UHGV virus genome: UHGV-0155908
Strand: one strand, 5' to 3'
Source of the DNA: a virus
DNA: 11,632 bases
Shown here: positions 1 through 11,632 of the stretch, in pieces
Layout: each line of letters opens with the position of its first letter
Numbering within the stretch: position 1 is the stretch's first letter
Made by a program: the position numbers and the translations under genes
The notes under the pieces: model-generated
What the model was told of the DNA's origin: nothing
What the model saw: only the letters and a program-made list of their open reading frames with translations
Database searches by the model: none

Positions 1-47
1 CGGCCCAGATCCGCGAAATTTTAATCAGCGAGTCAGCTTGGGAAGAA

Positions 48-839
48 ATGACCTGCTTATTCGCACCTTCCTTAGCTTCCTTAGCTAATATGATACAGCC
101 TTTTGATGAATCAAAATTTATTGAGAGGTTGTACAATGATATTGATTTTATCATTACTGATCTTGAGAGAGCATCAAATAAGTATTATTGCGATGACGAG
201 GATAAAATAACTAATGTTATCGCTCTTGCTCTACGAATGAAAGGATATGATGCGACAGAACAAACAAACTCTAATGGCACTGTTGATTTAACTATTAGGG
301 ATAACACGAAGAAATTTACATGGCTGGCTGAGGCTAAAAGAGGTTATAGTTTAAACTCGGTTTTTGAGGGGCTTTTACAATTAGTTACTAGGTATTTGCG
401 AAGGGAAACGCATGCTGGATTATTAATTTATCATCAAAAAAAAGGAGCTATGGCATTCCTTAGAGATTGGCACACGTATCTTTCATCTGGTAGCTATAGG
501 AAGTATTCTAAGATCCAAGAAAGAATAGATGAGTGCGATAAGTGCTTTCGCTTGTCACCTGTTGCCTATTCAATGATTCCATCTAATAATTCTCATTACT
601 TTGATTTTACTGCGGTAAAACCGAATGATGGGCAAGTTAAAGTTCGTTGTTTTATTGCAGATTTAAACTTTGATCCAATTGATAAAAGTGCAAGAACAAA
701 TGCCAGTTTAGCAAAAGGACAATGTAAGATATCATTAACGGACATATGTACTCATTGGGAGTGTGAGGGCGAAATTCCAGGTGATGTTAATACGGTCTTT
801 CAAATGCTGAAAAACTTACACCCGGAATATTTCGTCTAA
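48..839 (+). CDS. hypothetical protein in AT-rich cargo locus; weak PD-(D/E)xK nuclease-like motif
   Basis: 263-codon ORF from the track. GC about 30% in sampled 60-nt stretches, well below the prophage core. The frame is open back to nt 3, so the true start may lie upstream of the window or at the internal Met near nt 90. Motif TVDLTIRD...(15 aa)...WLAEAKRG fits a D-x(n)-E-x-K nuclease core, by eye only. Confidence 0.55.
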   Translation: MTCLFAPSLASLANMIQPFDESKFIERLYNDIDFIITDLERASNKYYCDDEDKITNVIALALRMKGYDATEQTNSNGTVDLTIRDNTKKFTWLAEAKRGYSLNSVFEGLLQLVTRYLRRETHAGLLIYHQKKGAMAFLRDWHTYLSSGSYRKYSKIQERIDECDKCFRLSPVAYSMIPSNNSHYFDFTAVKPNDGQVKVRCFIADLNFDPIDKSARTNASLAKGQCKISLTDICTHWECEGEIPGDVNTVFQMLKNLHPEYFV

Positions 840-963
840 ATTTTTGACTTATTTAAAGTGGGACTCAATTTTATTTTTCGGTCATAAACCAATACTTGCG
901 ACTCTGTTTTATGACCACTAAATAATTTTTTTCTTTTCCTGAACCCTCGTAATCTGATATGCC

Positions 964-1100
964 TTATGCTTTGAGGTCATGGAAGGTACAATCAAGTAGC
1001 CTACCAAGTTTATTGGCAGCAGTTGTTCTGGCTTTTCGCCATGTCTCGTTAAACCCTTTGTAAGAGTACTGCTCTCCATACGCCGTTTTGGTAAGCGAAT
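964..1100 (-). pseudogene. 3' remnant of a second lambda-family integrase (about 45 codons, lacks catalytic-Tyr tail)
   Basis: Reverse-strand translation gives ...LTKTAYGEQYSYKGFNETWRKARTTAANKLGRLLDCTFHDLKA then TAA, colinear with the intact integrase segment IKTMYGERYSYKGFNEAWRKARAAAANHLGRPLDCTFHDLKA. The DNA is clearly similar (compare 1036-1090 with 2257-2311) but not identical. Homology is lost upstream of about nt 1100 and the fragment ends just before the region that encodes the catalytic tyrosine in the intact gene. Track ORF 918..1130 is an out-of-frame artefact over this remnant. Confidence 0.7.
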
Positions 1101-1384
1101 GGTGGAAGAGTTGAATGCGGAAGGAGGCACTTCTCAACTCGATGCCCGGGTGCTTGAGTTACTGGTTGAAACGTACAGTGGCATCTGGGATGGGACCGTT
1201 AAACCGAAGTGGGGGTAAATCCCTTCTCTCCGCCACTATTTAAGCATTTAGCACATCTTTAATCAGTGATACAAGTCTCGTTGAGGAAAAAGAGAAATTC
1301 ACTTAAAAAAATTCTGTTATCATTCCCTTCTTTATGCAAAAATCCCATCTATCCTTTTTTATAATAATTTTATAGAAAAACATA

Positions 1385-2050
1385 ATGAAGCACGAAAATG
1401 TTAATACAATTATTGCTCTGGCGGGACTGGGGTTAGCTGCCTTTAGTACATTTATGCAATTTAAACCTCAGCAGGATGTTTTGGATATAGTTGTAACAGC
1501 TGATAATTCTGATAACAGAGGTTTTTTCCTGAAAGGAAAACCACTTCCTGATGATATTTTTGGGGAGTCAAAAATCCTCGCTGGACCGTATAATTTGTTT
1601 TTCGAAATATCTAATAATATAAACAGACCTGTTACAATTAAGGGAGTTGACATAAAATTACTTGATGATACAGGGTCGTCAATAGATTATGGCGATATAG
1701 TTTACTCTGAAAGTGATAAAAAAACATTAACCAATCCTGTGCAATATGAACCTCATACAGTAAAAAGGTTTAACGTAGCTATCAATATACCAATCGTTTA
1801 TGGAAAAGAGTTCAATAAATGTTTTCATCCTACAGGCTTTATAGTTGAGCAGGGTAGATATTTTGGCGATATCCGTTTTTGCTATTATTCTGAGGGTGTT
1901 GATTTCTTTGGCAATAAAGTTAATTCCCGTGTTTTGGAAGGCGGTGGTATTTATTTTACTAAGGATGAAAGTAAGTATCTAAACTATAAAGTTACAGTAG
2001 TTACTGGTGATAACACTATTATCAGTAAGGTGGTCACTATTCGCGACTGA
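1385..2050 (+). CDS. hypothetical membrane-anchored protein (N-terminal hydrophobic helix) in the int-proximal cargo position
   Basis: 221-codon ORF; N-terminus TIIALAGLGLAAFSTFMQF is a likely signal-anchor or TM helix with no lipobox Cys. AT-rich like 48..839. Converges on the integrase 3' end with only 11 nt between stops. A TATAAT hexamer lies upstream at 1360-1365; the SD is weak. Confidence 0.6.
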   Translation: MKHENVNTIIALAGLGLAAFSTFMQFKPQQDVLDIVVTADNSDNRGFFLKGKPLPDDIFGESKILAGPYNLFFEISNNINRPVTIKGVDIKLLDDTGSSIDYGDIVYSESDKKTLTNPVQYEPHTVKRFNVAINIPIVYGKEFNKCFHPTGFIVEQGRYFGDIRFCYYSEGVDFFGNKVNSRVLEGGGIYFTKDESKYLNYKVTVVTGDNTIISKVVTIRD

Positions 2051-2061
2051 CCACCTGTGGG

Positions 2062-3045
2062 TTATTTATCAAGAGTAGGGGTTATCTTGATCTTTCTATC
2101 ATAGACAAGAACTTGAGATTCAGTTTTGTGACCGCTGAACTTCTGTTTATCTCTGGAAGAGCCTTCGTAGTCAGAAATGCTTTTAGCCTTCAGATCATGA
2201 AATGTGCAATCCAGAGGTCTTCCTAGATGGTTAGCTGCTGCTGCTCTTGCTTTTCGCCATGCCTCGTTAAACCCTTTGTAAGAGTAACGTTCTCCATACA
2301 TCGTTTTTATGACCGCACCATCTTCTCCCCATGCTCGACACCGATTCACTGCTGTTCGTAAACGTTCAGTCCATGCTTTTATTTGCTTAACACCCGTTTT
2401 GCCTTGCTGGATGAAAATCCCTTCATCCATTATCTGGGACCAATCCATCTTCAGAACATCGGATACCCTCGCTGCACACAGGTAAGCTATTTCCATTGCG
2501 GCTTTAACCGGTTCACTGGCGTGTTCATAAATCGCCAGGTATTCTTCATCCGTGATGTAGCGATCACGCTTTGGTTTTGGAAACTTGTCCACTCCTACAC
2601 ATGGATTACCAGGAACGAAGCCACGTTGATACCCCCAGCGATAAACTCGAGACATCGAGCTATGTTCATGGTTGGCCTGGACACGGCTTTTCTTTCCTCT
2701 GGCATCCATGTAGCGTCTGACATGTTCTGGCTTAATGGCTTTAGCCTCAGCATCACCGAAAACAGCCAGCAGATATTTTTCATGAGCCAGATAGTCTTTC
2801 TGTGTTCGCGGGGCTAAAGCTGCATAATCCGTGCTGTTTAGGAACTTCTTCCATAATTGGGAAAAGGTAAGTATATTTTTCCTGCCTTCAACCACCTTCT
2901 CAAAAGCGATCCATACCTCTGATTTTGAGGCGCCGGCAGGTGCCAGTTTTTCTGTTGTTCCACCTGGTTTCCAGTAATAACCAGAAGGGCGAAAGAAAAC
3001 GCCCTTTGGCATCCACTCGTTACCGGGTGCTCGTTTGCGACCCAT
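2062..3045 (-). CDS. int: tyrosine site-specific integrase, lambda Int family
   Basis: 327 aa. N-terminus MGRKRAPGNEW...PSGYYW parallels lambda Int MGRRRSHERRDLPPNLYIRNNGYYCYRD (arm-binding domain). Central QQGKTGVKQIKAW parallels lambda EQSKTGVKIAIP. C-terminus FHDLKAKSISDYEGS...GHKTESQVLVYDRK parallels lambda FHELRSLSARLYEKQ...GHKSDTMASQYRDDR, including the catalytic Tyr. Comparison is from recalled lambda sequence, not an alignment tool. Confidence 0.93.
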   Translation of the reverse strand: MGRKRAPGNEWMPKGVFFRPSGYYWKPGGTTEKLAPAGASKSEVWIAFEKVVEGRKNILTFSQLWKKFLNSTDYAALAPRTQKDYLAHEKYLLAVFGDAEAKAIKPEHVRRYMDARGKKSRVQANHEHSSMSRVYRWGYQRGFVPGNPCVGVDKFPKPKRDRYITDEEYLAIYEHASEPVKAAMEIAYLCAARVSDVLKMDWSQIMDEGIFIQQGKTGVKQIKAWTERLRTAVNRCRAWGEDGAVIKTMYGERYSYKGFNEAWRKARAAAANHLGRPLDCTFHDLKAKSISDYEGSSRDKQKFSGHKTESQVLVYDRKIKITPTLDK

Positions 3046-3049
3046 AATT

Positions 3050-3271
3050 TCACTCTATTGCGTTGAAGTTCATGCCCGGAGTGGGCAGAGACCCTGCTGG
3101 TGGATTTAACCTGAATGGATGATTTATATGATACCAAGTGGTTTTAACTGCACCATCGCGGCGTTCAATAAAATAAATACCATTCTGAGTTAAAACTTCT
3201 TTTTGCAGAGACTTCTGTGGTGATCCAGTAGCTTCTGCAAGTTCGTCATCAGTTAGGAAACGATCGCTCAT
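3050..3271 (-). CDS. xis: putative excisionase / directionality factor (by position; sequence unlike lambda Xis)
   Basis: 73-aa ORF immediately upstream of int on the same strand (stop 3052-3050, int ATG 3045-3043). GGAGA lies 7 nt upstream of its ATG. Small and basic/aromatic. Function is inferred from the conserved xis-int arrangement only. Confidence 0.6.
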   Translation of the reverse strand: MSDRFLTDDELAEATGSPQKSLQKEVLTQNGIYFIERRDGAVKTTWYHINHPFRLNPPAGSLPTPGMNFNAIE

Positions 3272-3329
3272 GAGACGTTCTCCACTTAGCCCAGCTGCAC
3301 CCAGGCTGTAACATCAAACAACGATCCGA

Positions 3330-3446
3330 CTAGTGCCATAGAGTTGCGATAATGCACCGAACTGTGGGCGTCTTTTTGTTGTTACCTTTGGCTATTTCAG
3401 CGCTAGTAGTGTTGGGGTGAGCCTGGAGATATTCAAATACGTTCAT
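3330..3446 (-). CDS. small ORF, 38 aa (MNVFEYLQAHPNTTSAEIAKGNNKKTPTVRCIIATLWH), possible small HTH protein
   Basis: Translated by hand; below the track size cut-off. Its ATG (3446-3444) overlaps the stop of the upstream small ORF in an ATGA arrangement. The segment TTSAEIAKG resembles an HTH start. Weak SD (AAAGG). Confidence 0.3.
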   Translation of the reverse strand: MNVFEYLQAHPNTTSAEIAKGNNKKTPTVRCIIATLWH

Positions 3447-3619
3447 GGCGTTTTACCTTTACGTTCCTGTTCCAGTTGCACCAGAGACTCTTTTAATGCT
3501 GCGAACGTAGCGTCCAGTCTGGTGGCGACTTCGCGCATAAGCGGTGCATGTTTTGGTGGTAATTCAGTAACGGAGGCAAAAGCCTCCGCTACGAGCTCTT
3601 TAACCTTCATGCGGCGCAT
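3443..3619 (-). CDS. small ORF, 58 aa (MRRMKVKELVAEAFASVTELPPKHAPLMREVATRLDATFAALKESLVQLEQERKGKTP), predicted helical
   Basis: Translated by hand; below the track size cut-off. GGTGGAG lies 8 nt upstream of the ATG at 3619; an alternative ATG at 3610 overlaps the upstream gene's stop as ATGA. It fills the otherwise empty 3272-3606 gap on the early-left strand. The + strand track ORF 3417..3644 is its antisense shadow. Confidence 0.35.
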   Translation of the reverse strand: MRRMKVKELVAEAFASVTELPPKHAPLMREVATRLDATFAALKESLVQLEQERKGKTP

Positions 3620-4146
3620 TGGCGCAGCTCCACCAGTTCGTTAAAGCGATTCATGAACAGGCCATAGGCTTGACCAGGACGGAGAGGGATGACCTGAACG
3701 AGATCAGAGCAGGGAATACCTTCGAGAATTTCCCACTTCGAACCGTCATCGATTTCCAGATCACGGCGCTCGGTGGCTAACATGGTGAGATCGGCATATT
3801 TCACGACAGCAGCTTGTTCAAGAGAGATACCGAATTTAAAGCGGATAAGACCATCAACATAAGTTTCCATGCGCTGGTAGTCAGGCAGCAATGCTTTGAG
3901 CTGGGCCGGAATATCCTGGCAATATGCCTCCGCAGCGTCGTGCATCAGCGCTTCAAAGGCGAACTCTGGCGGCACAATCTGGCTTACAAGCACAGAGTGC
4001 TGGGCTACGCTGTAGAACTCTGGCAGATGCCCAGCGAATCGACAGATGTTGGAAAGAGCAGTCGCGATATCCTCAACATCGATATCGTCGATTGTGGCGG
4101 TCAGGTAGTTAAATTTTTTACCGGATAATGTCTGAATGTAGCTCAT
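3607..4146 (-). CDS. HD-domain phosphohydrolase (YfdR-like, putative 5'-deoxynucleotidase)
   Basis: Track ORF 3607..4173 trimmed to the Met at 4146, which has GGAGA 6 nt upstream. His...HD signature (AGHLPEFYSVAQHS ... LMHDAAEAY) typical of the HD superfamily. At 179 aa and adjacent to the large upstream protein it matches my recollection of yfdR in E. coli cryptic prophage CPS-53/KplE1. Confidence 0.75.
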   Translation of the reverse strand: MSYIQTLSGKKFNYLTATIDDIDVEDIATALSNICRFAGHLPEFYSVAQHSVLVSQIVPPEFAFEALMHDAAEAYCQDIPAQLKALLPDYQRMETYVDGLIRFKFGISLEQAAVVKYADLTMLATERRDLEIDDGSKWEILEGIPCSDLVQVIPLRPGQAYGLFMNRFNELVELRQCAA

Positions 4147-4274
4147 GGTTTTCTCCATATTGGCGCGCTGCACCGCGCAGATTTTGGTTGCACGAATCCC
4201 TCGCCGGGTGGCGATAATTAATGGAATTACGCTTCAATAAATCCCCGCGGCGCCGGGGATTTAATGCAGAGCAA

Positions 4275-5102
4275 TTAGGCTTTAAAGTTACCGATGAAAG
4301 TTTCCACTGATTCACCTTCGAACTTGCTGATCAGCAAATCGCGGAATTCGTTGGCGATCTCTTCTTCCTTGGCTTCAAGTTGGACGATGCGCAGAACAAA
4401 GCAGGGTTCATCGCTGGTCAGCAAGCTGTTACGCAAGCTAAAGCGGCGTTCACCCAGACCTTCATACGGCACACATTTGAATTCAAACGCCACAGGCATT
4501 ACGTCTTTGCTGCTTGCTTCAACGCTTTGCATCAGGGATTTTTTACCAGCGAAATCACCAGTTTCATGGTCCTGCTGTGTTGCTTGCTGAATAGTGATAC
4601 GACGCACAGCCTGAGCTGCCTGGGAAATCTGCATCGTATTGCCATCAGCATCAAACGCCAGAAGGTAATCGCTCCAGTCTTCCAGCCATTCAGCGATTTG
4701 CTTTTGCTTCAGACGTTGACCATCGATCTGCAGTAACGCGCGGAATGGGGCGGTTTTCTTCAGGGTGATCGAAGCAACGTTATCTGCGTGACCGGGATTA
4801 TCCAGGGTGCCGATGTTGAACACTGAACGAGCGGTCATGTTGTCAGCATCAATGAAGCAACGGGCTGGATCGCTGGCGCTGGCGTAACCTATAGAATAAC
4901 GTGCGAAATCTTCAATACTGGTTGTTGTCATTGCACCACGGAAGCGGAAACGCTCCAGAGAAAAGCGCTCAAGGCTTTCAACGCTAGTACCATCTGGCAG
5001 CAATGCGGTCGGGCAAGCCAGACCATGAATATCATCCAGGTGGTAGCCAGAAAGGACCAGGTCTTTTACCTGCTGAAATGTACCGCTATCTAACTGAGAC
5101 AT
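4275..5102 (-). CDS. hypothetical phage protein, 275 aa (recalled as DUF2303 / YfdQ-like; unverified)
   Basis: 275-aa ORF with AAGGAA SD upstream; protein-like composition. Size and position directly upstream of the HD hydrolase match the yfdQ-yfdR pair as I recall it. Family assignment is from memory, not from a search. Confidence 0.7.
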   Translation of the reverse strand: MSQLDSGTFQQVKDLVLSGYHLDDIHGLACPTALLPDGTSVESLERFSLERFRFRGAMTTTSIEDFARYSIGYASASDPARCFIDADNMTARSVFNIGTLDNPGHADNVASITLKKTAPFRALLQIDGQRLKQKQIAEWLEDWSDYLLAFDADGNTMQISQAAQAVRRITIQQATQQDHETGDFAGKKSLMQSVEASSKDVMPVAFEFKCVPYEGLGERRFSLRNSLLTSDEPCFVLRIVQLEAKEEEIANEFRDLLISKFEGESVETFIGNFKA

Positions 5103-5158
5103 AGAAATTCCTTATTAACTGATGATCGAAGTGGTATCAGTGAGTTTGTTGTTGCGGA

Positions 5159-5530
5159 TCACTGAGCCGCTTTAAGCTTTCCATCCACCGCGCCAGTGAT
5201 CCCGAACAGCTGACCCTGATCTTCCTGCAGGATGGTGAGCTTCCCGCCTTTGTTGACCCACATCGGGGTTTCGGTTGTGTCCTCTTCGGAGGCTTTACCA
5301 CGCGGTGTTGGGGTGCTGTAGTTCAGCTTGTGCTTGATCTTGACGCGCTTCTCTTCAACGGAATTACCCATGCGCTCAAAATCAAATGTGAGGACTACTT
5401 TGCCTTTGTTGCCGTTGTTCAGAACGCCAAGCGCGGTGGTATTAAGTGCTGCCGCGATTTTGTTCATGAACACGCCGGCATCCAGTTCGCCAAGAAAATC
5501 TGGCACTACGGTCATGCGGTCATTACTCAT
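5159..5530 (-). CDS. hypothetical early-left protein, 123 aa (possibly YfdP-like)
   Basis: ORF with GAGGG SD 7 nt upstream of its ATG; protein-like composition; first ORF downstream of the long noncoding tract on the pL strand. Confidence 0.6.
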   Translation of the reverse strand: MSNDRMTVVPDFLGELDAGVFMNKIAAALNTTALGVLNNGNKGKVVLTFDFERMGNSVEEKRVKIKHKLNYSTPTPRGKASEEDTTETPMWVNKGGKLTILQEDQGQLFGITGAVDGKLKAAQ

Positions 5531-6711
5531 GGTTTTACCCTCGTTAAGGCGGCTGCAACCGCCGAACTTTCTCCATACACAACAGAGAAGAGCACCTGCA
5601 TTGGTCGGCGGCTTGCAGGGACCGCTTTCTTTTTGCCCGGGTGGATTGGGTTATGAGCCCGTCGCCCGGTGATGCTCTTTTCTGTTGCGTAAAAAGGGCG
5701 GTACCGAGGTAGAACATTATCTTCGTCCCCCTTGCATAAGGTTGAAGGCCCAGGTACCGCCAAGACTACACACATGGAACTACGGTTATCACAGTCCTAA
5801 GCGTGATTTGGTTGTGGTTGCTGGTGCTGAACTCCAGCTCAGTGGCGCGGTGTTTCAATATCGTAACCGCCCGTTCCATCCGCGTTCGATCAGTCCGTAT
5901 GCTCGCTTAGAACGTTTCGCCTGCTTATCTTTTCTCAACCGTTTGACGGTCAGCCCCGCCATTCACCACAACGAAGAGAGCACTGCCGGTATCCGAATTG
6001 AACGGACCTTTTCGTTGCCCATCACCGCTATCTGTATAGCGGTGGCAGGGATTGAACCTGCCGTTATGCCTTGCTCGTCAATGCTCTCATCGTTGTGTGC
6101 TGACCTTACAGCCAGCATGGTTGGAATGAAGACGCATCACGACTTTTCACCAACTGGGCGGGATCACCATGAAAGAGCCGCCCCTTTAGCCTTTCATGCT
6201 CCCCATCTTTCTAGGTAGTCAATGCCTCCAGTTGGGCATACAACCTTCGGTTATCGCTCCGTCGTCAGCGCCACTCTCCAGGACATTTATAAGGACCGTC
6301 TCCAAGTGGTAACTCTTCCAGTCCCGGTAAGCATCCTGCGAGATGCTTACCATGACCGGCTGATCTTCCCTGAAAAAGGCTGGCGGTTACCGGACAAACG
6401 GGAAAACACCGGGCCGCCAGAACAGGGAGTTACTTGTTATTGCTTTGGCCTGCTTTTAACCACATCAGGCGCGGTGGTAGGTATCTTCGGGCGGGGTGCT
6501 AAGGGGGTGATTAGCCCTTGCCCTTAACACTCCTGCTGGTTTTGGTATTCCTGGCTTGGGTATCGCCACCAGCTATAGGAATTTGACTACGAGTTGCGGT
6601 TAATCAGGCCGCGCCTCTGTTACCCCTCCCGAAGACACCTGTCAGCGAATCATCCGGTTATTCATATGCCACCGGCGGCTACTTCGTGGGCGTCCTGCCT
6701 GTTCGCTGTTG
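5531..6711 (-). other. ORF-poor, GC-rich, hairpin-rich tract between putative pL and the first early-left gene; candidate large structured RNA or leader
   Basis: No minus-strand ORF of 60 aa or more across about 1.2 kb (only 5527..5775, rejected). Perfect hairpins at 6023-6044 (9 bp stem, 4-nt loop), 6326-6351 (10 bp stem, 6-nt loop) and 6380-6420 (7 bp outer plus 4 bp inner stem). On the minus strand 6045-6061 reads GCAGG-TTCAATC-CCTGC, a tRNA T-arm-like stem-loop. GC about 58% in a sampled 60-nt stretch. Confidence 0.3.
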
Positions 6712-6719
6712 ATGAATAA

Positions 6720-6748
6720 AATCTAACTTAACTTAGCTTTTAGATCAA
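6720..6748 (-). promoter_or_regulatory. putative pL-type early leftward promoter
   Basis: On the minus strand: TTGATC (-35; + coordinates 6743-6748), 17-nt spacer, TAGATT (-10; 6720-6725). Lies just beyond the 3' end of the repressor gene and overlaps the operator repeats. Confidence 0.4.
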
Positions 6749-6774
6749 GAAAAAACACCAAACTATTCTTAGCT
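6721..6774. promoter_or_regulatory. OL-type operator repeats (CTTAGCT half-sites)
   Basis: ATCTAActtaACTTAGCT at 6721-6738 matches the OR copy at 7503-7520 in 15 of 18 positions. Inverted ends ATCTAA (6721-6726) and TTAGAT (6740-6745). A second CTTAGCT at 6768-6774. Confidence 0.45.
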
Positions 6775-6802
6775 TGATGTTAAGAGGAAGGTTAGAGGTG
6801 GG

Positions 6803-7429
6803 TTAAAGCTCGTACTGAACGCCTTTGACAACGCCGATGATCAGGCAATTACCGTTAATTGAAATGTTTGGATAGCGTGGATTTAAGGGAACTAAGAACT
6901 TTTGAGGCCCATCGATGACAAGTTTTTTTACAGTAGCCTCGTTTGTCCCATCAAGCCTGGCTACGACTATCTTTCCATGAAGTGGCTCTGCATCTGGATC
7001 TACTATGACTGTTGCCCCTTCAGGGATTGTCGGGAGGCCATTAGGGTTTGTCATCGAATCACCTTTAACCTCCAATGCAAAGGAGCTATCCCCTATGCGG
7101 AGTGATGTCTCTATCCACTTATCTACTTCGCTGAAAACTTCTGCTGCTTTACATTCTGTAAACTGTCCAGCCTGAACCCAGGATATCACCGGAATCCTTC
7201 GCATCTTGGTTATCAGATTGCCTTCAAATTCAGTGCCATAAAGTATGTAATCAATTGATGTGTTGAAATACTTTGCAAGTTTCGCAAGTGACTCGCCTCC
7301 AGGCACATTAACGTCTTTTTCCCAATACCCAACCGCCACATCACTAACACCGCAGAACTTACCCAGTTCTTTCTGCGAGGTTTTGGTTATGCGCCTGAGA
7401 GCTTTGATGCGCTGACCGACAGTTTCCAT
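6803..7429 (-). CDS. cI: CI-like prophage repressor (HTH plus LexA/S24-type autocleavage domain)
   Basis: 208 aa. N-terminal HTH (QKELGKFCGVSDVAVGYWEKD). C-terminal GDSMTNPNGLPTIPEGATVIVDPDAEPLHGKIVVARLDG...KKLV...LVPLNPRYP closely parallels lambda CI [40 protein letters not shown]...KKLI...LQPLNPQYP. An Ala-Gly (WVQAGQ) candidate cleavage site is present. Confidence 0.92.
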   Translation of the reverse strand: METVGQRIKALRRITKTSQKELGKFCGVSDVAVGYWEKDVNVPGGESLAKLAKYFNTSIDYILYGTEFEGNLITKMRRIPVISWVQAGQFTECKAAEVFSEVDKWIETSLRIGDSSFALEVKGDSMTNPNGLPTIPEGATVIVDPDAEPLHGKIVVARLDGTNEATVKKLVIDGPQKFLVPLNPRYPNISINGNCLIIGVVKGVQYEL

Positions 7430-7455
7430 TTGAACACCATAAATAAATTAAAAGG

Positions 7456-7523
7456 CTAAGCAATCTTAGTTTTTATTGACCAAAGTTAGATTGGTTATTA
7501 ATATCTAATCAAACTTAGCTAAG
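7456..7523. promoter_or_regulatory. OR-type operator cluster in the cI-cro divergent intergenic region
   Basis: Palindrome CTAAGcaatCTTAG at 7456-7469. Inverted repeat TTAGAT (7486-7491) / ATCTAA (7503-7508). Perfect 10-bp palindrome CTTAGCTAAG at 7514-7523. 18-mer ATCTAAtcaaACTTAGCT at 7503-7520, shared with OL. Confidence 0.55.
7476..7504 (+). promoter_or_regulatory. putative pR-type rightward promoter for cro
   Basis: TTGACC (7476-7481), 17-nt spacer, TAATAT (7499-7504), followed by AGGAGG (7522-7527) 4 nt before the cro ATG at 7532. Operator palindromes overlap the -10 and the RBS. Confidence 0.6.
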
Positions 7524-7531
7524 GAGGCGTT

Positions 7532-7759
7532 ATGACAACCGATGATATTGAAAACTACTTCGGCAGTACTGAGAAGGTTGCCGAATTTTTTGGAATCACA
7601 AGCGAGGCTGTTTACCAGTGGCGTAATAGAACTGGTCGCCTTATCCCAAAAGGGCGTGCAGCTGAAGCAGCATATCGAACCGGGGGGAAATTGGTTTTTC
7701 ATCCCGACCTTTACGAAAAGCGTAGCGATGCTTCAGTAAAACTCAAACCACAGGAATAA
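7532..7759 (+). CDS. cro: Cro-like HTH regulator
   Basis: 75 aa, divergent from cI across the operator region, strong SD. Segment GSTEKVAEFFGITSEAVYQWRN resembles the lambda Cro HTH [21 protein letters not shown]. Confidence 0.8.
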   Translation: MTTDDIENYFGSTEKVAEFFGITSEAVYQWRNRTGRLIPKGRAAEAAYRTGGKLVFHPDLYEKRSDASVKLKPQE

Positions 7760-7769
7760 GGGGGGAGCT

Positions 7770-8321
7770 GTGGGTAACGAACCTATTTGGAAAGTCGAAC
7801 GTCAGCCAGCCTGGCTGGTGGCGGCGATAAAAAAAACGATCACCGATCTTCCTGGTGGTTATGCCGAGGCGGCGGAATGGTTGGGCGTGACAGAGAACGC
7901 ATTGTTCAACCGCCTTCGTGTTGACGGCGACCAAATCTTCCCGCTGGGCTGGGCAATGGTTTTACAACGTGCTGGTGGTTCAACTCATATTGCTGATGCC
8001 GTTGCGCGCCATTCTCAGGGCGTATTTGTACCGCTGGCAGACGTTGATGATCTGGATAACGCCGATATAAACCAGCGCCTGATGGAGTCCATTGAATGGA
8101 TAGGTCGTCATTCTAATTTTGTACGTAAAGCCACGGCTGATGGGGTAATTGACGCAGATGAGCGTGCTCAGATTGAGGAAAACAGCTATCAGGTTATCGC
8201 GAAGTTCCAGGAGCACGTAACGCTTCTTTATCGAGTTTTTTGTGTCGCTGAAAAGAGTGACGCCCGCGAGTGTGCAGCTCCGGGCGCCTTGGCGAACAAC
8301 TCTTCGAGTATGGAGAAATAA
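7770..8321 (+). CDS. CII-position regulatory protein (putative phage regulatory CII-like family), 183 aa
   Basis: GTG start at 7770 with GGGGGAG SD 4 nt upstream, 10 nt after the cro stop. HTH-like segment GYAEAAEWLGVTENALFNRLR. Function is inferred from synteny (cro then regulator then replication); the family name is from memory. Confidence 0.5.
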   Translation: MGNEPIWKVERQPAWLVAAIKKTITDLPGGYAEAAEWLGVTENALFNRLRVDGDQIFPLGWAMVLQRAGGSTHIADAVARHSQGVFVPLADVDDLDNADINQRLMESIEWIGRHSNFVRKATADGVIDADERAQIEENSYQVIAKFQEHVTLLYRVFCVAEKSDARECAAPGALANNSSSMEK

Positions 8322-8493
8322 TCCGCATGAGCAGTTTAACGGCTTTTAACCGTCTACCGCAACTCAGGATGATCCCGGTTTCGGGTACTCCGTTGTTTCG
8401 GTATGAACGCAGATTATCAAACCGCTGGGTTCCGTGTAACCACAGTAGGGCGGTTTCAATTGTGGGGGTCTATAACCGGAGGGCAAAACGCCT

Positions 8494-8673
8494 GTGCGCG
8501 AACTTAACCGAAGGTTCAAAGACCACCGCGGAGTGTCTGTCCGTGTTATCCGCTGGGAACCAGAAACACAACGCGTTATCTACCTGCGTGATGGCTACCC
8601 GCACGAATGCTTCAGCCCACTTGAGCATTTCAGGCAAAAGTTCAGGGAGATAACGGACGATCATGAGCACTAA
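8494..8673 (+). CDS. possible small ORF, 59 aa (GTG start; ...RELNRRFKDHRGVSVRVIRWEPETQRVIYLRDGYPHECFSPLEHFRQKFREITDDHEH)
   Basis: Translated by hand; one codon under the track cut-off. GGAGGG lies 10 nt upstream of the GTG; its stop (8671-8673) overlaps the start of the O-like gene (8663). Protein-like charge pattern. It competes with the rejected low-complexity track ORF 8270..8653. Confidence 0.3.
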   Translation: MRELNRRFKDHRGVSVRVIRWEPETQRVIYLRDGYPHECFSPLEHFRQKFREITDDHEH

Positions 8674-9520
8674 ATTAACCGGCTACGTATGGGATGGTTG
8701 CGCGGCGTCGGGCATGAAGTTGTCTAGTGTCGCGATCATGGCTCGCCTCGCTGATTTCAGCAGCGATGAGGGAGTGTGCTGGCCGTCCATTGAAACTATT
8801 GCTCGCCAGCTTGGCGCAGGGCCGAGCACGATCAGAACGGCAATCGCAAAGCTTGAAAAAGATGGCTGGCTCACGCGTACACAGCGCCGTAATGGTAACC
8901 GTAATGCGTCGAACGTGTACCGCCTGAATGTGGCGAAACTTCAGGCTGCCGCATTTTCTCAACTGTCAGATTCTGACACGTCAAAATCTGACGCATCAAA
9001 TTTTGACGCCTCAAAAACTGACCCGTCGAAATCTGGCAAAAACGGCGGTTTTGACCCGTCAGAATCTGGCGGGGATCCGTCAGTAAAATCAAAACAAGAT
9101 CCACAAGTAACTTCAAAACCCTCTTGTCCGGTTGCGGCGCAACCAGACCCTGAAGTCGTGATTACTGATCAGGCAATTTTGGTTCTGACCCATTTGAACC
9201 AAATCAGCGGATCCCGGTATCAGAAATCAAAAACATCCCTGGAGAACATCCGTGCCCGACTGCGTGAGGGATACAGCGTTGCAGACCTGCAACTTGTTAT
9301 CGACCTGAAGCATGAGCACTGGCACGAGAACGACGAGCAGTACCAGTACATGCGACCGGAAACGCTGTTTGGCCCGAAGAAATTCGAGAGCTATCTGCAA
9401 AGCGCTACCCGCTGGGAGCAGAAGGGACGGCCTAAACGTGCTGACTGGGGAGCGAAAAAGCGCGATGTGATGGCTTTTGGTCCGGTTGAAACAACGATTC
9501 CAGAGGGGTTCAGAGGATGA
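8663..9520 (+). CDS. phage replication initiator, lambda O-like (N-terminal HTH domain, iteron-encoded linker, conserved phage C-terminal domain)
   Basis: 285 aa. N-terminal HTH region (PSIETIARQLGAGPSTIRTAIAKLEKDGWL). Low-complexity S/D/K linker encoded by DNA iterons. C-terminal ...RARLREGYSVADLQLVIDLKHEHW...RPETLFGPKKFESYLQ matches the conserved C-terminus of phage replisome-organiser proteins as I recall it. Confidence 0.85.
   Translation: MSTKLTGYVWDGCAASGMKLSSVAIMARLADFSSDEGVCWPSIETIARQLGAGPSTIRTAIAKLEKDGWLTRTQRRNGNRNASNVYRLNVAKLQAAAFSQLSDSDTSKSDASNFDASKTDPSKSGKNGGFDPSESGGDPSVKSKQDPQVTSKPSCPVAAQPDPEVVITDQAILVLTHLNQISGSRYQKSKTSLENIRARLREGYSVADLQLVIDLKHEHWHENDEQYQYMRPETLFGPKKFESYLQSATRWEQKGRPKRADWGAKKRDVMAFGPVETTIPEGFRG
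8974..9064. repeat. origin-type iterons inside the O-like gene (TGAC-N-C-N-TC-R-AAA units, 15-bp period)
   Basis: Copies at 8974-8986 (tgacacgtcaaaa), 8989-9000 (tgacgcatcaaa), 9004-9017 (tgacgcctcaaaaa), 9019-9031 (tgacccgtcgaaa) and 9052-9064 (tgacccgtcagaa), with a degenerate copy near 9034. Followed by an A-rich stretch at 9076-9120. Same logic as ori-lambda within gene O. Confidence 0.6.
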
Positions 9521-10398
9521 CGTTAAACAAATATTGCCAGGCGCTGGTGGCACTACGTAGCCAACCAGCCCACGAATTGAAAGAAGTTGGCGATCAGTGG
9601 CGGACACCGGACCTGCTTTTTTGGGGCATTAATGCGATGTTCGGCCCGCTGACGCTGGATCTCTTTGCTGATGACGATAACGCTAAGTGCCCTGTGTGGT
9701 ACACCGCCGAAGATAACGCGCTGGTACAAGATTGGGCGGAAATGCTGGAATCAATCGGCGGGGCCGCATTCGGTAATCCACCATATAGCCGTTCGCAGTA
9801 CCACGAGAAACAGGCGATAACCGGCATGACCCACATCATGGATCGCACAATGGAAATGCGTGAAAAGAGTGGGCGTTACGTGTTCCTCATTAAAGCGGCG
9901 ACAAGTGAAACATGGTGGCCGGAAGATGCCGATCACATCATGTTTATCCGCGGTCGTATTGGCTTCGATCTCCCTGTGTGGTTTGTTCCTGCTGATGATA
10001 AGCAGAAGCCCACTGGTGCTTTCTTTGCTGGTGCTATTGCAATCTTTGATAAGTCATGGCGCGGAGAGCGTTTCAGCTACATCAGCCGTACCGAACTGGA
10101 AGAAAAAGGGCGGGCGTTTATGGCTTTGGCTCAATTCGCCGTTGGTAAAGAGCAAACAATTGCAATGCAGGCAGCTAAGGAACCAGCAGCAACACCGGAA
10201 ACTGAGTCACGAATTTGGCCTCTCGAGGTTGGTCTGGTGTTTAACCAGGTGGAAGGCGTTGATGTATTGAGCGAGGCCCAGCAGAACAAACTGAAAGCCA
10301 ACATCAATCAACTCTGGCTGGAACGAACGGCCACCAGCGAAATTATCACAATTGCGCGTGGTCTTGTTGGCAGCATGCAGGGGGTAACCCATGCGTGA
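9517..10398 (+). CDS. phage N6-adenine DNA methyltransferase (Dam-like)
   Basis: 293 aa. N-terminal W-x-TP motif (DQWRTPDLLFWGINAMFGPLTLDLFADDDNAKC) and catalytic NPPY (AAFGNPPYS). Its ATG overlaps the O-like stop as ATGA. Confidence 0.85.
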   Translation: MTLNKYCQALVALRSQPAHELKEVGDQWRTPDLLFWGINAMFGPLTLDLFADDDNAKCPVWYTAEDNALVQDWAEMLESIGGAAFGNPPYSRSQYHEKQAITGMTHIMDRTMEMREKSGRYVFLIKAATSETWWPEDADHIMFIRGRIGFDLPVWFVPADDKQKPTGAFFAGAIAIFDKSWRGERFSYISRTELEEKGRAFMALAQFAVGKEQTIAMQAAKEPAATPETESRIWPLEVGLVFNQVEGVDVLSEAQQNKLKANINQLWLERTATSEIITIARGLVGSMQGVTHA

Positions 10399-11632
10399 GA
10401 TTATCGTTGATAACTTTGCTGGTGGCGGTGGTGCATCAACGGGTATTGAACTGGCGATCGGACGCAGCGTGGATATTGCGATCAACCACGACGAAAACGC
10501 CATTGCGATGCACAAGACGAACCACCCTGACACACTGCATTACTGTGAATCCGTATTTGACGTGGATCCGGTAGCCGCCACCGGCGGCAATCCTGTTGGC
10601 CTGGCATGGTTTAGCCCGGACTGCCGACACTTCTCAAAGGCCAAAGGCGCAAAGCCTGTGAAAAAAGAGATACGCGGTCTGGCCTGGATCGTTCTGCGTT
10701 GGGCACTGGCGAAGCGACCGCGCGTGATGATGCTGGAGAACGTGGAAGAGTTTAAAACGTGGGGACCGCTGCTGGCCGATGAAATGCGTCCAGACCCTGC
10801 CCGCACTGGCGAAACATTCAATGCTTTTGTCGGCATGCTTTCCACTGGCATTCCTGCCGATCACCCGGCACTGGCGGAGGTCTGCGAATTTCTTGCTATT
10901 GATCCTGGCAGCACGCAGGCCAAACAGCTGGTGGAAGGGCTTGGATATGATGTTGATTATCGCGAACTGCGCGCGTGTGATTACGGCGCGCCGACGATCC
11001 GCAAACGCTTCTTCATGGTTATGCGCTGCGATGGTTGCCCTATTCAGTGGCCTGTTGTAACCCATGGGGATCCCAAGTCACTGGAGGTGCAGAGCGGCAG
11101 GCTGATGCCATGGCGTACCGCTGCGGAATGTATCGACTGGAATGTTCCGGCTCTGTCCATCTTCGACCGCAAAAAACCGCTGGCAGAGAACACTCTGAAG
11201 CGGATCGCACGCGGCATACAGCGCTTTGTTATCGAAAGTGCGTCGCCGTTTATCGTGAAGTGCAACCACACGAGCTCAAAAAATGCGTATGACGCTTTTC
11301 GCGGACAGTCACTGAATGAGCCATTACAGACCATTACTAAAAAACTCGGCTACGCGTTAGCCGTTCCACACCTTACAAAATTCCGCACTGGCGCAACCGG
11401 GCAGCCCGTTACCGAACCTGTTCCGACGGTAACCGCTGGCACGTCAAAACGCCCGGGCGGGAACGGGCATGCTCTCGGGATTGTTGAGGCTGCATTGACA
11501 CCATTCCTGGCGGGTAATGGTGGTAGTGAATACCAGGCTAAACCGCGCCCGCTGAATAAACCTGCTCATACCATTCTGAAGCAATCCCGAGCCTGTCTTG
11601 TTGCGCCAGTGATAGCCCGCCAGTTTGGGGCC
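10391..11632 (+). CDS. DNA cytosine-5 methyltransferase-like protein, 3'-truncated by window end
   Basis: Hand-translated 414 codons, open to the window edge. Motif I-like IVDNFAGGGGAS. Cys-containing FSPDCRHFSKAKG at the spacing expected for the Pro-Cys catalytic motif, though the canonical form is PC rather than PDC. ENV motif at MMLENVEEF. Start overlaps the upstream gene's stop by 8 nt. Confidence 0.75.
   Translation, partial: MREIIVDNFAGGGGASTGIELAIGRSVDIAINHDENAIAMHKTNHPDTLHYCESVFDVDPVAATGGNPVGLAWFSPDCRHFSKAKGAKPVKKEIRGLAWIVLRWALAKRPRVMMLENVEEFKTWGPLLADEMRPDPARTGETFNAFVGMLSTGIPADHPALAEVCEFLAIDPGSTQAKQLVEGLGYDVDYRELRACDYGAPTIRKRFFMVMRCDGCPIQWPVVTHGDPKSLEVQSGRLMPWRTAAECIDWNVPALSIFDRKKPLAENTLKRIARGIQRFVIESASPFIVKCNHTSSKNAYDAFRGQSLNEPLQTITKKLGYALAVPHLTKFRTGATGQPVTEPVPTVTAGTSKRPGGNGHALGIVEAALTPFLAGNGGSEYQAKPRPLNKPAHTILKQSRACLVAPVIARQFGA

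Follow-up and report, generated by a model that had tools for sequence, protein, structure and literature searches.

A candidate PD-(D/E)xK nuclease from a three-gene prophage cassette, interrupted by ISKpn26 in virus genome UHGV-0155908

The virus genome UHGV-0155908 provided the 11,632-nucleotide (nt) stretch of DNA that was analyzed here (the window), near the left edge of which lies an open reading frame (ORF) of 263 amino acids (aa) at positions 48 to 839. All but the first codons of this ORF belong to a gene that, on every contig encoding intact homologues, is the third in an operon of three genes, which we term A, B, and C. We propose, with a probability of about 60%, that protein C is a metal-dependent nuclease of the PD-(D/E)xK superfamily, that it is encoded in an A–B–C cassette serving anti-phage or inter-phage exclusion, and that the copy in the window has been broken by an insertion sequence (IS). 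Within this candidate defense cassette, C is probably the effector. A PD-(D/E)xK nuclease among prophage cargo is unsurprising in itself; the cassette has been catalogued once, and its mechanism is undescribed.

Conservation and predicted fold of protein C

The following parts of protein C, numbered as in the 263-aa ORF, are referred to throughout.

198 to 434 (+): predicted PD-(D/E)xK catalytic core, residues 51 to 129
198 to 200 (+): E51, in the first core helix
285 to 287 (+): D80, in strand 2
330 to 332 (+): E95, in strand 3
336 to 338 (+): K97, in strand 3
378 to 380 (+): Q111, in a core helix that also holds R115 and Y116 and is followed by strand 4
435 to 836 (+): C-terminal extension, residues ~130 to 263, with helices, a beta-hairpin (residues 184 to 205), and terminal helices

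A preliminary description of this DNA had read a nuclease core into a hydrophobic-D-hydrophobic strand that is followed by E-A-K. The segment in question, NGTVDLTIRDNTKKFTWLAEAKRG, corresponds to residues 76 to 99 of the ORF (nt 273 to 344), with D80 and E95-A96-K97 (nt 330 to 338 for the latter) at the proposed spacing of 15 residues from D80 to E95. On its own, the D...(D/E)xK pattern is weak evidence and not beyond chance: a hydrophobic-D-hydrophobic ... (D/E)xK arrangement arises in 31% of 2,000 shuffles of the window protein and occurs four times in the unrelated neighboring 221-aa ORF. Its significance comes solely from conservation and structure, both of which bear out the proposed nuclease core.

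A search of an index of 5.8 billion proteins returned 17 close homologues of C, every one labelled "hypothetical," and their alignment is invariant at D50-E51-D52-K53, D80, E95, A96, K97, Q111, R115, and Y116. Extending the search by profile to 1.84 billion cluster representatives yielded 572 relatives (384 at E ≤ 1e-10), mostly proteins of ~210 aa that share residues ~15 to 160 with C; standalone relatives align to about residue 220. When the best 150 of the 572 were aligned to the C profile, D80, E95, K97, and G77 were each retained in 149/149 representatives and E51 in 148/148, followed by Q111 (148/149), W92 and Y116 (147/149 each), and R115 (145/149). A MAFFT alignment of 139 of these best 150 contains exactly five invariant columns, namely, E51, G77, D80, E95, and K97.

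In an AlphaFold2 model built from an 18-sequence alignment (predicted local distance difference test, 81; predicted template modeling score, 0.78), a helix (residues 51 to 64) is followed by three strands (68 to 73, 79 to 84, and 91 to 98), a second helix (102 to 116), and a further strand (122 to 129), which is the alpha-beta-beta-beta-alpha-beta topology of the PD-(D/E)xK core. E51 opens the first helix, D80 falls within core strand 2 (79 to 84), and E95 and K97 both lie in core strand 3 (91 to 98); members of the superfamily often have a glutamate in the first helix as well. The N-terminal 50 residues are modeled as two helices with no recognized domain, and the C-terminal extension holds a conserved P210-x-D212-x-S214 motif. 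The closest structural neighbors of the model are BamHI and OkrAI (score, 7.7 each), BstYI (7.3), BglII (6.8), and SwaI (6.4), with CinB, the CdiA-CT EC869 DNase, HamA, EcoRI, McrC, and NucC ranking lower. Foldseek found nothing significant for the model in the PDB (template modeling score of ~0.2), and searches of PDB sequences with the 18-member and 139-member C profiles gave matches only at chance level. The predicted fold and the motif of C are well supported, and we infer that the protein is enzymatically active, very probably as a DNA-cutting protein of the restriction enzyme type.

That the D...ExK residues are coincidental, with C being instead a structural or regulatory protein or an enzyme of the nucleotidyltransferase fold, is highly improbable. 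Across ~150 distant relatives, the motif residues do not vary, and their positions coincide exactly with the secondary-structure elements on which they would be expected. Nucleotidyltransferases do appear scattered among the structural neighbors of C, but at a root mean square deviation of 7 to 13 Å, and C lacks the G[SG]...DxD signature: the residues after D80 are L-T, and a second acidic residue is missing. On these two grounds, we rejected C as a nucleotidyltransferase.

Domain databases gave weaker signals. Over residues 54 to 107, the window protein matches Pfam models Mrr_cat (E = 0.056; 14 bits against a cutoff of 21) and PDDEXK_9 (E = 0.17; 12.3 bits against a cutoff of 25.5), both below the gathering score, and it has no match in PADLOC or NCBIfam. 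When the 139 relatives were compared individually with Pfam, the families matched by more than one member were led by the PD-(D/E)xK clan: PDDEXK_9 was hit by seven members (best E, 5.4e-5), Mrr_cat by three (2.3e-3), and HamA by two (7.8e-4). HSDR_N was hit once, and RRP14 was the one unrelated family with two matches. Since the scores of the window protein lie below the thresholds, C represents a separate family within the superfamily that belongs to neither Mrr_cat nor PDDEXK_9. PHROGs matches are confined to families without known function (9664, 12777, and 11490). We conclude that C founds a new, previously unannotated PD-(D/E)xK family with no match in Pfam, NCBIfam, or a named PHROG.

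The same nuclease domain (profile residues ~15 to 160, catalytic residues kept) forms the end of STAND proteins of 712 to 1,226 aa that combine NACHT or NB-ARC domains with HEAT repeats. Eight such fusions, all encoded outside the window, were noted (P0048, P0055, P0059, P0071, P0081, P0083, P0097, and P0111); their nuclease domain is C-terminal, after the repeats, as opposed to N-terminal in many STAND defense proteins.

The A–B–C cassette and its carriers

Proteins A (350 to 361 aa), B (106 to 146 aa as called, in frames of 430 to 530 nt), and C (265 to 280 aa) are encoded as a strictly syntenic unit. A further 27 loci came from scanning IMG/VR and a single genome for each species, and A and B were detected at the loci by hidden Markov model (HMM) searches of six-frame ORFs. 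At all 41 of the 41 loci that include upstream DNA, C is immediately preceded by A and B, which are encoded on its strand in overlapping or abutting frames. Between the lambdoid-type and P2-type versions, identity is only 32% for A, 26% for B, and 38% for C, and yet the genes remain syntenic, indicating that the trio has been kept together over a long period of divergence.

Three kinds of element carry the cassette: P2-like prophages, in which it lies between portal gene Q and replication gene A and is flanked by phage core genes; a P4-like element in Rouxiella, where it is located downstream of delta; and lambdoid prophages integrated beside mtfA, in which it occupies the region between attL and int. 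One P2-type cassette is found in CP028752.1. Gene C has a GC content of 36 to 37%, versus ~50% for the prophage backbone. All three locations (the old/tin position between Q and A of P2, the P4-like element, and the attL–int interval of lambdoid prophages) are known defense hotspots of mobile elements. The old/tin locus of P2 is a hotspot of anti-phage systems, and the cassette is listed there as system #145, "DUF5939 | DpnII-MboI," with 14 occurrences (Table S5B of Rousset et al. 2022, PMC9122126). System #145 is absent from the tables of tested systems in the same paper (Rousset et al. 2022, PMC9122126). Our literature searches found neither a published phage-protection test of the A–B–C cassette nor other work on it, and nothing on RdgC in connection with anti-phage defense, on PDC-S54, or on DUF5939; the motif strings had no match in the DefensePredictor supplements.

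The best structural neighbor of the A model is RdgC. Comparison of A with prophage RdgC by hhalign detected no sequence similarity, and A as a sequence homologue of RdgC was rejected; the predicted likeness is at the level of the fold. B has no recognizable fold, detectable family, or PDB sequence match. The profiles of A and B matched PDB sequences only at chance level, and neither protein carries a Pfam, NCBIfam, or PADLOC domain, methyltransferases included. Across PADLOC, NCBIfam, and Pfam, searches with A, B, C, and the 221-aa ORF returned only the weak nuclease matches and, for the P2-type C, PDC-S54.

The RdgC-like fold of A invites the reading that the cassette is a recombination or DNA-processing module serving its carrier phage, with C as a nuclease of the lambda-Exo, RecB, or Cas4 kind. 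RdgC is a recombination-associated DNA-binding ring, and related lambdoid prophages have a bona fide rdgC beside an exonuclease gene in their early region. The cassette, however, is found not in early or recombination operons but at variable cargo positions of elements belonging to three unrelated types; its GC content is foreign; and it is rare and patchy, being absent at ≥85% DNA identity from 5,426 complete Escherichia coli genomes. Together with the want of sequence similarity between A and RdgC, and with neighbors of C that are restriction enzymes and not exonucleases of the RecB or lambda-Exo type, this makes a recombination module very unlikely.

C could also be a solitary restriction enzyme, either modification dependent (Type IV-like) or methylase free, with A as its DNA-binding or target-reading subunit. 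The cassette would then be a restriction system and neither an abortive-infection nor a sensor-effector system. The closest solved folds of C are indeed Type II restriction enzymes, weak Mrr_cat and HSDR_N matches occur in the family, A and B lack a methyltransferase domain, and the fold of A resembles that of a DNA-ring protein. We nevertheless regard this possibility as unlikely: A, B, and C contain no nucleoside triphosphatase (NTPase) and none of the known domains that read modified bases (such as SRA, YTH, and DUF3427), the Mrr_cat match is below threshold, and STAND NTPases carry this nuclease domain at their end, an arrangement typical of triggered effectors.

The ISKpn26 junction in the window

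The ORF at positions 48 to 839 is a chimera, the parts of which are as follows.

1 to 71 (+): right end of ISKpn26 (IS5 family), identified by megablast, by the annotated transposase in NZ_CP032986.1, and by base-by-base comparison of the junction
56 to 71: terminal inverted repeat of the IS, CTTATTCGCACCTTCC, at the right end of ISKpn26
72 to 75 (+): TTAG, the IS target site (IS5-type YTAR), by comparison with the intact locus L002
48 to 839 (+): chimeric 263-aa ORF, in which 8 IS codons (MTCLFAPS) are joined in frame to native gene C codons 11 to 265
72 to 839 (+): native portion of gene C, encoding residues 11 to 265 of the intact protein (265 aa), with the stop codon included

Megablast of window positions 1 to 2100 against the 5,426 complete E. 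coli genomes gave matches over the first ~82 to 96 bases only, and these bases match 4,901 places in 1,887 genomes, on chromosomes as well as plasmids. In NZ_CP032986.1, the matching stretch lies 76 nt downstream of the annotated ISKpn26 transposase coding sequence, on the same strand. The junction itself is resolved by the E. coli draft assembly locus L002, where the intact gene reads ...GAAGTG TTAG CTTCC... and the window reads ...CACCTTCC TTAG CTTCC...: the IS ends at base 71, base 72 is the first that aligns with the uninterrupted gene, and TTAG occurs there only once. A 4-bp YTAR target is duplicated by elements of the IS5 family. Window positions 72 to 3318 are 98.2% identical in DNA to L002 positions 8031 to 11277, and where the proteins align, the native portion of gene C encodes exactly the residues of the intact 265-aa E. 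coli protein P0001, whose N terminus is MSQLNLPPEVLASLAN, as opposed to MTCLFAPS-LASLAN in the window ORF. Locus L002 comes from contig ABNQUQ010000001.1 of E. coli assembly GCA_032588435.1 and has the intact A, B, and C genes at positions 6501 to 8798.

Because the end of ISKpn26 spans positions 1 to 71, the ATG at 48 and the IS codons that follow it are not native: the start codon is ISKpn26 sequence, and the first ten native codons of gene C are replaced in the window. The preliminary description had remarked that the frame is open to the window start, and it is indeed open back to base 3, but the suggestion that the protein may be longer than 263 aa fails, as this open frame is an untranslated IS end that encodes no extra protein, and the intact form has 265 aa. 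The exact chimeric 263-aa product has no record in the public gene index. For annotation, the lesson is that an ORF open to the edge of a window can be a chimera made by an IS, here with a start codon belonging to ISKpn26.

ISKpn26 appears to have inserted at TTAG after codon 10 of gene C, an event that would have replaced the native N terminus and cut C off from A and B and from the promoter that serves them. Co-oriented with gene C, the transposase gene would be situated before the window start, and read-through transcription from the IS into gene C is conceivable. Only two start codons would then be available for truncated C: the ATG at 48, supplied by the IS, and the ATG at 90 (Met15). A scan of window positions 1 to 2100 for promoters and terminators returned nothing above shuffled sequence. 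The copy of gene C in the window has probably been reduced to a disabled remnant that is inactive or, at most, expressed through read-through from the IS.

At another locus (L021, positions 1 to 64 of a contig from Phytobacter sp. V91), the contig breaks 64 nt upstream of a 44%-identical homologue of gene C, where A and B would be expected; this break may mark a second case of a repeat or IS junction at that point.

The clipping of C by an IS would be consistent with selection against a toxic gene, and B and C could be viewed as a toxin-antitoxin or addiction pair, in which the nuclease toxin C and the antitoxin or immunity protein B stabilize the prophage or satellite and do not serve phage defense. 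The B frame reaches the start of C, which it abuts or overlaps (4-bp overlap in L002), and one public name for a B homologue is "SMI1/KNR4 family protein," which refers to a superfamily of immunity proteins. This name lacks HMM support, as no B homologue matches the SMI1/KNR4 or SUKH Pfam models even at E ≤ 10, and B as a SUKH/SMI1-KNR4 immunity protein was rejected. Given also that B has no PDB sequence match and that the larger gene A, which a simple two-part module would not need, is invariably present, we consider such a pair quite unlikely, although toxin-antitoxin and defense roles are not mutually exclusive. The solitary restriction enzyme and the toxin-antitoxin pair in fact overlap with the exclusion cassette that we favor, whereas the recombination module and the chance motif are disfavored.

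Proposed mechanism

By analogy to the superfamily, E51 in the first helix, D80 in strand 2, and E95 in strand 3 would be the ligands of a metal ion, with K97 orienting the attacking water. C would cut DNA once phage DNA, invading or replicating, has been detected or bound by A, B, or both. DNA binding or sensing is probably the task of A, whereas B probably regulates or bridges C and may restrain it. The operon moves as low-GC cargo among P2-like phages, a P4-like satellite, and lambdoid prophages. A more specific and rather doubtful version is that A–B–C forms a mechanistically new sensor-effector system with neither an NTPase nor a methylase, in which an RdgC-like, DNA-encircling A senses the ends of phage DNA or intermediates of replication or recombination and licenses C, with B acting as a latch.

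A family that databases call "hypothetical" (17 close homologues and 572 representative clusters) is thus given a function-level assignment and is tied to a strictly syntenic cassette that three kinds of mobile element carry in classic defense hotspots. This cassette is a concrete and cheap candidate for phage challenge, with D80A, E95A, and K97A as obvious catalytic knockouts.

Other features of the window

Downstream of gene C, the window contains the following.

848 to 1098 (−): integrase pseudogene remnant, found by tblastn, convergent with gene C
1385 to 2050 (+): 221-aa ORF with a hydrophobic N-terminal helix, between the integrase remnant and int
2062 to 3045 (−): intact tyrosine integrase gene (int) of a lambdoid-type prophage, with Pfam labels taken from the 98%-identical locus L002
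3050 to 3271: DUF4224 excisionase-like gene next to the integrase, with the Pfam label taken from L002

Aligned with the final 84 residues of the int product at 2062 to 3045, the remnant is 72% identical, and its frame is broken by an internal stop codon and a frameshift. Directly after gene C, Atlantibacter-type and other related prophages have an intact integrase gene; since an intact int occupies the position of the remnant elsewhere, the second int and the segment from 1099 to 2061, including the 221-aa ORF (orf221), were apparently acquired by the lineage of the window via recombination or tandem integration. The 221-aa ORF has a GC content of 32 to 35%, is also present in E. coli loci L002 to L004, and has no match in Pfam, NCBIfam, PHROGs, or PADLOC. 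It stands outside the conserved cassette, being absent from P2-type, P4-type, and Atlantibacter-type loci, and is possibly another cargo or exclusion gene.

The remainder of the window (3300 to 11632) is a lambdoid-type early region with genes for a DUF2303/YfdQ-like protein, a cI-like repressor of the LexA family, Cro-like, CP76-like, and replication proteins, an N6-adenine methyltransferase, and probably a cytosine methyltransferase that runs off the end. Its identity to any complete E. coli genome is at most ~83 to 88%, as compared with 98% between positions 72 to 3318 and an E. coli draft assembly, a difference that suggests a mosaic prophage. Between the YfdP-like gene and the cI-like repressor gene, ~1.3 kb (5530 to 6800) is without a convincing ORF; this interval has a GC content of 50 to 54%, shows patchy matches to E. 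coli prophages that cover 28 to 34% of it, and contains no Rfam family, as was also the case for an Rfam scan of the whole window.

Comparison with known systems

(i) Restriction enzymes. C shares only 10 to 13% identity with the Type II enzymes of the BamHI/OkrAI/BstYI/BglII group. Unlike Type II enzymes, it has no cognate methyltransferase alongside, and unlike those of the BamHI group in particular, it has an extra C-terminal region of ~130 residues and two unrelated partner genes. With Mrr_cat (PF04471) and PDDEXK_9 (PF08011), the family shares recurrent Pfam matches over the helix-strand-strand-strand region at residues 54 to 107, although the window protein remains below both gathering thresholds; for Mrr_cat, the mark of Mrr-type (Type IV) enzymes, it reaches 14 of the 21 bits. 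Mrr-type enzymes usually also have a winged-helix DNA-binding domain at the N terminus, where C has two helices without a recognized domain.

(ii) Defense systems with related nucleases. STAND/NLR-like effectors of the Avs/bNACHT type share the domain of C, but the C of the cassette is free-standing and its operon encodes no NTPase. Hachiman, represented among the structural neighbors and Pfam matches by HamA, differs in that the cassette has no HamB-type helicase. The P2-type C matches the PADLOC candidate PDC-S54 (PDLC05036) at E = 2.7e-7 over 140 of 410 profile positions, whereas neither the window protein nor its intact 265-aa form matches this profile at E ≤ 1.

(iii) Three-gene systems of the P2 hotspot. 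The validated "hp+hp+hp" system of Rousset et al. (Rst_3HP; proteins of 333, 359, and 227 aa) was rejected as an equivalent of the cassette by direct profile comparison, which showed no similarity to the A, B, and C profiles with filters off (bit scores ≤0.1). System #145, in contrast, is the cassette itself: by leading sequence and motifs, its three proteins are the A, B, and C of P2-type loci L005 to L010, its listed C having a slightly longer acidic tail than the C of those loci. The lambdoid type, to which the gene in the window belongs, stands at the distance from system #145 given above for the P2 type (A 32%, B 26%, and C 38% identical). System #145 was listed by occurrence only, with no proposed mechanism, and the window contains a divergent lambdoid variant of it that is interrupted by an IS.
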